Assembly (NCBI GenBank): GCA_021824625.1
Contig: JAKAKE010000179.1
Span: 16,060 to 80,059, forward strand
DNA from: Bacteroidota bacterium
GTDB lineage: Bacteria; Bacteroidota; Ignavibacteria; Kapaibacteriales; UBA2268
DNA: 64,000 nucleotides
Direction of reading: 5' to 3'
Part shown: one piece after another, positions 9,043 to 9,867 of the stretch
Numbering within the stretch: the stretch's first letter is position 1
Layout: each line of letters opens with the position of its first letter
The notes under the pieces: generated by a model
Databases searched by the model: none
Seen by the model: only the letters and a program-made list of their open reading frames with translations
What the model was told of the DNA's origin: nothing
Made by a program: the position numbers and the translations under genes

Positions 9043-9867
9043 TTATTTTAATTTTTTACCACAATGAGGGCAGTAATTTATTTCATCTTGATTTTCTTCA
9101 ATTTGTTTTCTTTTTGAAATTTCCTCAATAAAACCCATGCTGATTATACCGGTTGGTATAGCAACCAATCCTATCCCAAATAAAGCAGTGAAAGCTGCTA
9201 AAATTTGCCCTAATGCTGTTACCGGATATATATCTCCATATCCAATTGTTGTAAGCGTAGCAAGAGCCCACCATAATGCTGAAAATATGCTTGTAAATTT
9301 ATCAGGTTGAATTTGATTCTCAATATGAAACATAATATATGAAGATAGTAAAATTATTATAGAAGCCATAAATAATGTAATTAATAGCTCATCTTTCTTA
9401 CTTCTTATAACCTTTCCAATTAATGATAGTGATTGAATAAAATGTGCAAGTTTGAATATTCTGAATAAACGTAAAAGTCTTAAAGCACGAAGGATTCTCA
9501 AATCGAATTTGAAAAACATAGGCAAATAGAAAGGCAAAATTGAAAGCAAGTCAACAATTCCAAATGGAGATATCATATATTTTAATCTTGATTTGATTTT
9601 ACTTAATTCAGGATATACTAAATCCGATATCCAAATTCTGATAAAATAGTCAAGTGTAAAAACTATAACAGAAAATACATCAAATACATGAAAGTAAAAA
9701 TAATAATGATGATAAATAGGTTCGTAAGACTCAAGGATGATGCAAATAATATTTAAAATAATAAGTGTCGAAAGGAAATAATCATCAATATAATAAACGA
9801 AATTTGTCTTCCGTTCAGGATTTATCATTATAGCAAATAAAAAATTCTTTATTTTTTTCATTATCAT
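9043..9867 (-). CDS. voltage-gated-type (6-TM) potassium channel with C-terminal zinc-ribbon-like CPHCG
   Basis: 274 aa. S4-like RILRALRLLRLFRIFK and K+ selectivity filter TTIGYGD. Confidence 0.85.
   Translation of the reverse strand: MIMKKIKNFLFAIMINPERKTNFVYYIDDYFLSTLIILNIICIILESYEPIYHHYYFYFHVFDVFSVIVFTLDYFIRIWISDLVYPELSKIKSRLKYMISPFGIVDLLSILPFYLPMFFKFDLRILRALRLLRLFRIFKLAHFIQSLSLIGKVIRSKKDELLITLFMASIIILLSSYIMFHIENQIQPDKFTSIFSALWWALATLTTIGYGDIYPVTALGQILAAFTALFGIGLVAIPTGIISMGFIEEISKRKQIEENQDEINYCPHCGKKLK

Follow-up and report, generated by a model that had tools for sequence, protein, structure and literature searches.

Why would a temperate phage carry a complete voltage-gated potassium channel? 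The question is raised by a gene at positions 9043–9867 (minus strand) of a 64,000-nucleotide stretch of contig JAKAKE010000179.1 (positions 16,060–80,059; GenBank assembly GCA_021824625.1) from a Bacteroidota bacterium of the Kapaibacteriales lineage UBA2268, hereafter called the window. An earlier note, made from the letters of this DNA alone, had described the gene as a prophage-encoded K+ channel with six transmembrane helices (6TM) and a voltage sensor, lying in the repressor operon, and had regarded such a channel as unusual in a temperate phage of bacteria. Here we report that the gene encodes a channel of the voltage-gated K+ (Kv) type, that it lies inside a prophage with defined ends, and that the order of repressor, channel and integrase recurs in other temperate phages. 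Taken as a whole, a reading of the channel as captured cargo that is expressed in the lysogen seems to us somewhat better than an even bet.

The predicted protein almost certainly belongs to the 6TM Kv superfamily, of which it is an intact representative. Its open reading frame (ORF) encodes 274 amino acids (aa), or 272 aa in public gene calls, which start two codons downstream. It matched the Pfam family Ion_trans (PF00520) with 107.6 bits (cut-off 25; E = 7.5e-31) over residues 29–251, which span S1 to S6, as well as Ion_trans_2 (E = 2.5e-15). The three motifs pointed out in the earlier note were all located in the translation and in the family alignment, on the minus strand: the S4 helix RILRALRLLRLFRIFK (9451–9498), with a ladder of R124, R127, R130, R133, R136 and K139; the K+ selectivity filter TTIGYGD at residues 206–212 (9232–9252); and a C-terminal CPHCG knuckle at C266–G270 (9058–9072). 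The Ion_trans match and these motifs are far beyond chance. The best sequence match among solved structures was KCNQ2 (phmmer against the PDB; E = 1.4e-33, residues 3–253), and Kv4.2 was matched as well. An AlphaFold2 model, for which 40 homologues served as input, had a mean pLDDT of 89.1 and a pTM of 0.73, with a pre-S1 helix (S0), S1–S4, an S4–S5 linker (141–156), S5, a pore helix (194–205) and a long S6. Foldseek aligned this model to Kv4.2 and Kv4.3 with TM-scores of 0.75–0.76 and a root-mean-square deviation of 3.3 Å over ~269 columns. Family match, conserved sensor and filter, and modeled fold thus all bear out the description of the protein as a 6TM channel of the voltage-sensor type. 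The pre-S1 helix, residues 3–20 (KKIKNFLFAIMINPERK), aligns to the N-terminal segment of KCNQ2 (RKLQNFLYNVLERPRG), and KCNQ channels are the nearest solved structures, by sequence, to this bacterial channel family.

Conservation was assessed in a family alignment of 40 sequences (A2), to whose columns all such figures refer. The S2 Phe (F70), the S3 Asp (D106), R127, R130, K139 and the Gly and Pro of S6 are invariant, and the columns of R124, R133 and R136 are at least 90% conserved, as is each of the filter residues T206, T207, G209, Y210, G211 and D212. The charge-transfer centre (F70, D73 and D106) occupies invariant or near-invariant columns. The phage copy keeps all of the conserved sensor, filter and gate residues, its sole change being a conservative D for E at position 73. 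At the C-terminus, conservation within the bacterial Kv family reaches at least 90% for C266, P267, C269 and G270, and the CPxCG knuckle comes after a variable charged linker. The tail therefore typifies the whole cellular family and is no special feature of the phage protein. It gave a weak match to Zn_Ribbon_1 (E = 0.0025), and the four tails of a tetramer could form metal sites between subunits. To our knowledge, a CPxCG knuckle has not been described in bacterial Kv channels.

Stand-alone prokaryotic 6TM voltage-gated K+ channels are represented by KvAP of Aeropyrum pernix, KvLm of Listeria and MVP of Methanocaldococcus. Like these, the window channel is ~270 aa long and has no large cytoplasmic domain, and it shares with them six basic S4 positions, the S2 Phe with its acidic residue, the S3 Asp, an S4–S5 linker helix, a TxGYGD filter, and an S6 with a Gly hinge and an IPTG gate motif. 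It differs from them in its best structure matches, which are the eukaryotic KCNQ2 and Kv4 rather than KvAP, in its CPxCG knuckle and in its location in a prophage. The channel falls short of the equivalog model for MVP-type, hyperpolarization-activated channels (NF040645; 42.3 bits against a cut-off of 300) and of the Escherichia coli Kch-type model (NF007828; 25.5 bits against a cut-off of 425, pore region only), and it lacks an RCK domain, ending at residue 274. From these sequence features, the protein presumably forms a voltage-gated, K+-conducting tetramer in the inner membrane. The viral channels Kcv, Kesv, Kmpv and their like come from large DNA viruses of eukaryotes and are pore-only proteins with two transmembrane helices (2TM) and ~80–125 aa. 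The window channel resembles Kcv in being encoded by a virus and in having a K+ selectivity filter; unlike Kcv, it has 274 aa with a full S1–S4 sensor and belongs to a tailed temperate phage. A search of a viral structure library returned pore-only matches and no full-length one; GenBank phages do carry the gene, so we take this to be a gap in the library.

The element that carries the channel is a prophage of ~56.6 kb integrated in a gene for tRNA-Thr(CGT) (6016–6089, plus strand). An 18-bp exact core inside a 46-bp imperfect repeat is present in two copies, at 6044 and 62633. The attL core (6044–6061) lies within the tRNA-Thr gene, the 3' half of which is supplied by the phage, whereas attR (62633–62679, plus strand) consists of the core (62633–62650) and the displaced original 3' half. 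Such repeats, together with a displaced 3' half, are what insertion of a phage into a tRNA gene classically leaves behind. A tyrosine integrase (6502–7500, minus strand; Phage_integrase; phrog_1, E = 1.6e-29) adjoins the tRNA-Thr gene, and the element also encodes a head maturation protease, a major head protein, a scaffold protein, a primase-polymerase, a helicase and an exonuclease. In a metagenome contig of 53.4 kb (L002), window positions 17612–6044, at 100% identity, are followed directly by positions 62678–55632, at 99.9%. A chimeric join is unlikely, because the assembly k-mer of 141 is far longer than the repeat. The join is an attP junction, and its source is excised or replicating phage DNA or a tandem lysogen. 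The channel, flanked by the att repeats and contained in the attP-junction contig, thus sits in an excisable prophage, as had been proposed; the true border does not lie elsewhere, so the gene is not host DNA beside the element. The phage-supplied 3' half of tRNA-Thr is lower in GC than the original one, and its T-arm reads GTCAG..CTGAC where attR has GGCGG..CCGCC, with compensatory changes.

We then asked how common such a channel is among phages. It matched the PHROG family phrog_7872, annotated as of "unknown function" (E = 8.8e-54, 183.5 bits; residues 26–263 against profile positions 15–229 of 254), and an alignment-based scan of IMG/VR confirmed at least 245 contigs with such channels. 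The alignment was needed for this, as a scan of IMG/VR with the single protein gave zero matches. In GenBank, the Lactobacillus phages PLE2 and JNU_P5 and Dulem virus 33 carry such genes, annotated as "ion transporter": the order is helix-turn-helix (HTH) repressor, metalloprotease, channel (gp27) and integrase in PLE2; regulator, small ORF, channel and integrase in JNU_P5; and HTH-XRE, channel and integrase in Dulem virus 33. The archaeal provirus Humcor1 (Halorubrum) also encodes a channel, which shares the CPxCG knuckle of the bacterial family as its CxxC tail. A full voltage-sensor channel in a temperate phage is therefore not the exception that the earlier note had supposed.

The genes around these channels were tallied for the best 80 IMG/VR loci, taking the two nearest ORFs on each side. 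HTH_3 accounted for 54 of the 150 upstream ORFs, Peptidase_S24 for 13 and Phage_CI_repr for seven. Downstream (141 ORFs), 20 matched Phage_integrase (tyrosine), 14 Resolvase (serine integrase) and six Abi_2. Rarer occupants of the slot were a single Ltp, DpnI and Mrr upstream, and two PemK and two HSDR_N downstream. In 77 cellular loci that served as a control, no HTH was among the families listed for the nearest upstream ORF, which were housekeeping families such as Obg. The layout of repressor, channel and integrase thus recurs, and the window channel is a further example of a catalogued arrangement shared by hundreds of temperate phages.

The likeness to PLE2, JNU_P5 and Dulem virus 33 is one of position, with an Ion_trans channel after the repressor and before the integrase. 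In sequence, the window channel is only 26–42% identical to these channels and to that of Humcor1, and they sit in other clades of the tree, which argues for an independent capture from a different chromosomal pool. The hosts also differ: type IX secretion marks the host here, while the bacterial phages among those compared infect Firmicutes or derive from gut samples. Since the viral channels as a whole fall in several separate clades, such genes have been captured repeatedly. Matches labeled "Acinetobacter phage MD-2021a" were not counted, as neighbors such as acnB, tamB and ydhP identify them as bacterial chromosome contigs; two records of this locus (L028), CAKLQH020000004.1 and CAKLQF020000002.1 (232 and 305 kb), look mislabeled as phage. 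In the literature searched, we found no paper tying temperate phages to voltage-gated K+ channels and no functional study of phage channels. Phages go unmentioned in a review of viral K+ channels from 2025 (PMC12332018).

Where did the phage obtain the gene? The channel family is very large and cellular: 25,712 representative clusters reach E ≤ 1e-3, and two peptide patterns alone place members in at least 505 species genomes from many phyla. A tree built from 134 sequences puts the window channel in a well-supported clade of 26 rows, none of which is from IMG/VR, and the clade members with informative flanks are chromosomal genes of bacteria with type IX secretion. Two of them with 62% identity (P0005 and P0006) share a common synteny of a TPR protein, the channel and Peptidase_S15, and others adjoin ferritin/LpxB/RuvA, LpxR/RecG/MutS or MscS/YceI. 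Type IX secretion tails are found on several of these neighbors, as well as on host genes in the window. Judged by these flanks, the clade is of chromosomal origin, and capture of the channel from a chromosomal gene pool as cargo is very probable.

When would the captured gene be expressed? It lies in a block of genes that are all on the minus strand, in the order S24 repressor, 115-aa protein, BNR protein, nuclease, channel, 127-aa protein, toxin-antitoxin pair and integrase. The first gene codes for a CI-like repressor (12376–13110; Peptidase_S24, E = 8.2e-15; phrog_4 transcriptional repressor, E = 1.6e-19), whose stop is overlapped by 4 bp by the start of a gene for a small, membrane- or lipoprotein-like protein of 115 aa (12032–12379). 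Next come a BNR/Sortilin-like protein with a type IX secretion C-terminal sorting domain, assigned by Pfam (10700–12001), and a DNA/RNA non-specific nuclease (Endonuclease_NS; 9876–10664; E = 2.3e-52; phrog_14168) that ends 8 bp before the channel. Downstream of the channel, after a gap of 17 bp, lies a gene for an exported coiled-coil protein of 127 aa with a Cys3-His basic tail (8642–9025), and next comes a DUF433/PIN_10 toxin-antitoxin-like pair (Pfam; 7509–8581). Intergenic gaps measure −4 to 35 bp between repressor and channel, and −4 to 60 bp over the whole block as far as the integrase. A terminator scan found no terminator-like site in any gap of the block, and one minus-strand site, at 9199–9184, inside the channel ORF. 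The earlier placement of the channel in the repressor operon is thus partly supported, by direction, gaps and terminators. From this layout, co-transcription with the repressor is plausible and expression of the channel in the lysogen is rather likely.

Part of this block has a counterpart in an IMG/VR contig (IMGVR_UViG_3300040744_000401; L036:7252-9702). There, the gene directly after a channel with 52% identity codes for a protein homologous to the 127-aa one (34% identity, E = 4e-14), and its tail matches Pfam PBCV_basic_adap. The secreted-type nuclease that comes after it belongs to the SNase family, not to Endonuclease_NS, and a DUF4236 protein lies upstream. The pairing of channel and 127-aa protein was found in this one of 80 viral loci. 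When each cargo protein was compared by tblastn with all fetched loci, the 127-aa protein had a homologue in this locus only, and the nuclease, the BNR protein, the 115-aa protein and the toxin-antitoxin genes had none; between the BNR proteins of the window and of this locus, homology was not detectable (E = 0.088). With the tblastn partners mostly unmatched, we rejected the idea that BNR protein, nuclease, channel and 127-aa protein form a fixed multi-gene system as a general rule.

The reading of the channel as lysogen-expressed cargo can be put as a sequence of steps. A tailed, temperate phage whose bacterial host has type IX secretion (Bacteroidota-like) captured an ordinary bacterial Kv gene of ~270 aa and kept it as cargo between a CI-type repressor and an integrase; in the lysogen, repressor and channel are most likely transcribed together. 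Membrane voltage would move the S4 sensor and the K+-selective pore would open; with the normal, outward K+ gradient, K+ would leave the cell, the potential would shift toward the K+ equilibrium value and cell K+ would fall. The effect would be one of repolarizing or clamping together with K+ loss, not the depolarization proposed for RexB or Sbash gp31. The lysogen may benefit from control of its membrane potential and K+ under depolarizing attack. The slot is rich in exclusion and defense genes in other phages (Abi_2, Ltp, restriction, PemK), and interference with superinfecting phages is the leading specific benefit, if a tentative one that we would not expect to be correct. Superinfection exclusion, control of the membrane potential and abortive infection, the roles put forward in the earlier note, are likewise guesses. 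Doubtful in a slightly higher degree is a variant in which the channel would be a one-protein, voltage-triggered anti-phage effector: S4 would sense the depolarization caused by an incoming phage, through DNA injection or early membrane damage, and open the pore, and either K+ loss would stall translation and replication or repolarization would block DNA entry. Such an effector would be the one-protein counterpart of the two-protein Rex logic.

RexB of Lambda and gp31 of the mycobacteriophage Sbash are prophage membrane proteins for which a role as ion channels in abortive infection has been proposed, with a change in the ion permeability of the membrane upon infection by another phage; both have four transmembrane helices (4TM) and need a cytoplasmic partner, RexA or gp30 (DUF4747), respectively (PMC6426596). 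The window channel resembles them in position, on the repressor side of the prophage, where those genes are expressed. It is unlike them in that there is no homology and that RexB and gp31 have neither a K+ filter nor a voltage sensor. No DUF4747 partner was found by Pfam among the neighbors of the channel, which does not qualify as part of a RexAB or gp30–gp31 system. We also considered gp31 as a precedent for a phage K+ channel and rejected it: as a non-homologous, RexB-like 4TM protein, it serves as an analogue only.

Several observations weigh against lysogen-expressed, protective cargo. A K+-selective pore alone cannot collapse the potential as proposed for RexB, so that a Rex-like mechanism is not directly transferable. 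As far as the sequence goes, the S4 sensor may open the pore upon depolarization or upon hyperpolarization. PADLOC returned no defense model for the channel or its neighbors, and the neighboring cargo, a secreted nuclease and a secreted BNR protein, resembles lifestyle genes more than defense genes. A sigma-70 promoter scan found 55 sites compared to 50.9 in shuffled sequence. Finally, the orientation that the channel shares with both repressor and integrase also fits an early lytic transcript of the lambda pL type.

This last point leads to an alternative in which infection or induction would set off transcription of the block from a pL-type promoter, and the channel would tune the potential or K+ of the infected cell for the phage; for example, the cell would be kept energized, the trigger of the holin timed, or the entry of a second phage blocked during the lytic cycle. 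The channel is co-oriented with the integrase, as in the lambda pL operon, and the Kcv of chloroviruses is a precedent for the use of a K+ channel by an infecting virus. Furthermore, a search for the Bacteroidota-type motif TTTG-N17-21-TAnnTTTG gave five matches where 4.2 were expected, none of them in 8.5–13.3 kb; the promoter scans, at chance level, and the terminator scan thus mapped neither a promoter nor a terminator for the block. However, the 115-aa gene overlaps the repressor stop and the gaps between repressor and channel are too short for an intergenic promoter, and in many phages the channel directly follows an HTH or S24 repressor, which is the rexAB-like, lysogen-expressed position. 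We therefore regard early lytic expression as improbable.

Nor do we think it likely that the channel serves host physiology only, as a conversion gene that gives a K+ channel to a host without one, for K+ uptake or release, osmotic adaptation or electrical signaling, with no link to conflict between phages. The host genome (3.58 Mb, 35% GC, 96% complete) contains no second Ion_trans protein and only one 2TM-pore K+ channel besides. Homologues are patchy, as accessory genes are, being present in seven of 18 genomes of the host family and 25 of 100 of the host order, and the cellular homologues stand in ordinary chromosomal contexts. The phage copy has retained the residues conserved in the family, including those of the CPxCG tail, and the adjoining cargo consists of secreted lifestyle proteins. 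All of this would suit a role in host physiology, but it leaves unexplained why unrelated temperate phages so often place this one family right after the repressor, in a slot rich in exclusion and defense genes.

The closest relative of the channel (P0003) has 90% protein and 82% DNA identity and comes from the same metagenome set, where its cassette is a rearranged form of the one in the window. Between these two copies, dN/dS is 0.05 at a dS of ~1.3, and the channel has therefore been under strong purifying selection while on the element. The identical channel protein is present on 13 contigs of public assemblies, for which places from six samples are shown. That the gene is a neutral passenger or a decaying pickup is very improbable: the GC content of the cargo block (27.2% at 7509–12379) differs from that of the rest of the prophage (33.7%) and of the left host flank (35.5%), which suggests a separate acquisition, but the dN/dS between two phage-cassette copies, the intact frame with its sensor, filter and gate residues kept, and the recurrence of the identical protein all speak against it. 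The rearranged cassette (L109 and L110; ENA ERZ27237587 and ERZ27237554) consists of the 3' end of the nuclease gene (87% nucleotide identity), two small ORFs (130 and 133 aa), the channel and a divergent second Endonuclease_NS, which stands where the window has the 127-aa gene. There are thus three arrangements in which nuclease genes adjoin the channel.

Other features of the window concern the element and its host more broadly. The phage encodes a tRNA-Met(CAT) at 14512–14584, among its early genes. A SocA_Panacea-domain protein (174 aa) and a 162-aa neighbor lie at the right end of the prophage (61544–62562); with this pair on the right and DUF433/PIN_10 on the left, both ends hold toxin-antitoxin-like cassettes. 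Of 61 genomes of the host family, 53 contain homologues of the major head protein (41717–42667), at ~35–45% identity and mostly one in each (loci L203–L207), and the host itself has a second one (G000:C150:44625-45545). This distribution suggests a capsid-like gene conserved throughout the family, for example that of a domesticated element or a very common type of prophage. Bacteroidota-type promoter motifs are present upstream of tRNA-Thr (5978–6009) and of feoA (1368–1398), among a total not above chance, and are consistent with a Bacteroidota-like host.

Textbook viral K+ channels are tiny pore modules of algal viruses. Our findings indicate that complete voltage-sensor channels are a recurrent and selected cargo of temperate phages, located where lysogen-expressed exclusion genes normally sit. 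New in this instance are a capture that took place independently, in a different bacterial lineage that has type IX secretion, a phage that supplies its host's only voltage-sensor channel, and evidence both for excision and for strong purifying selection on the channel. The instance thus adds breadth to a known layout rather than a new principle. If exclusion or buffering of the membrane potential were found to be true in a tractable relative, such as PLE2 in Lacticaseibacillus casei BL23, this would be a new prophage function and would assign bacterial Kv channels a role in physiology. Should the voltage-triggered effector be true, it would constitute a new and widespread class of prophage defense, present in hundreds of temperate phages.

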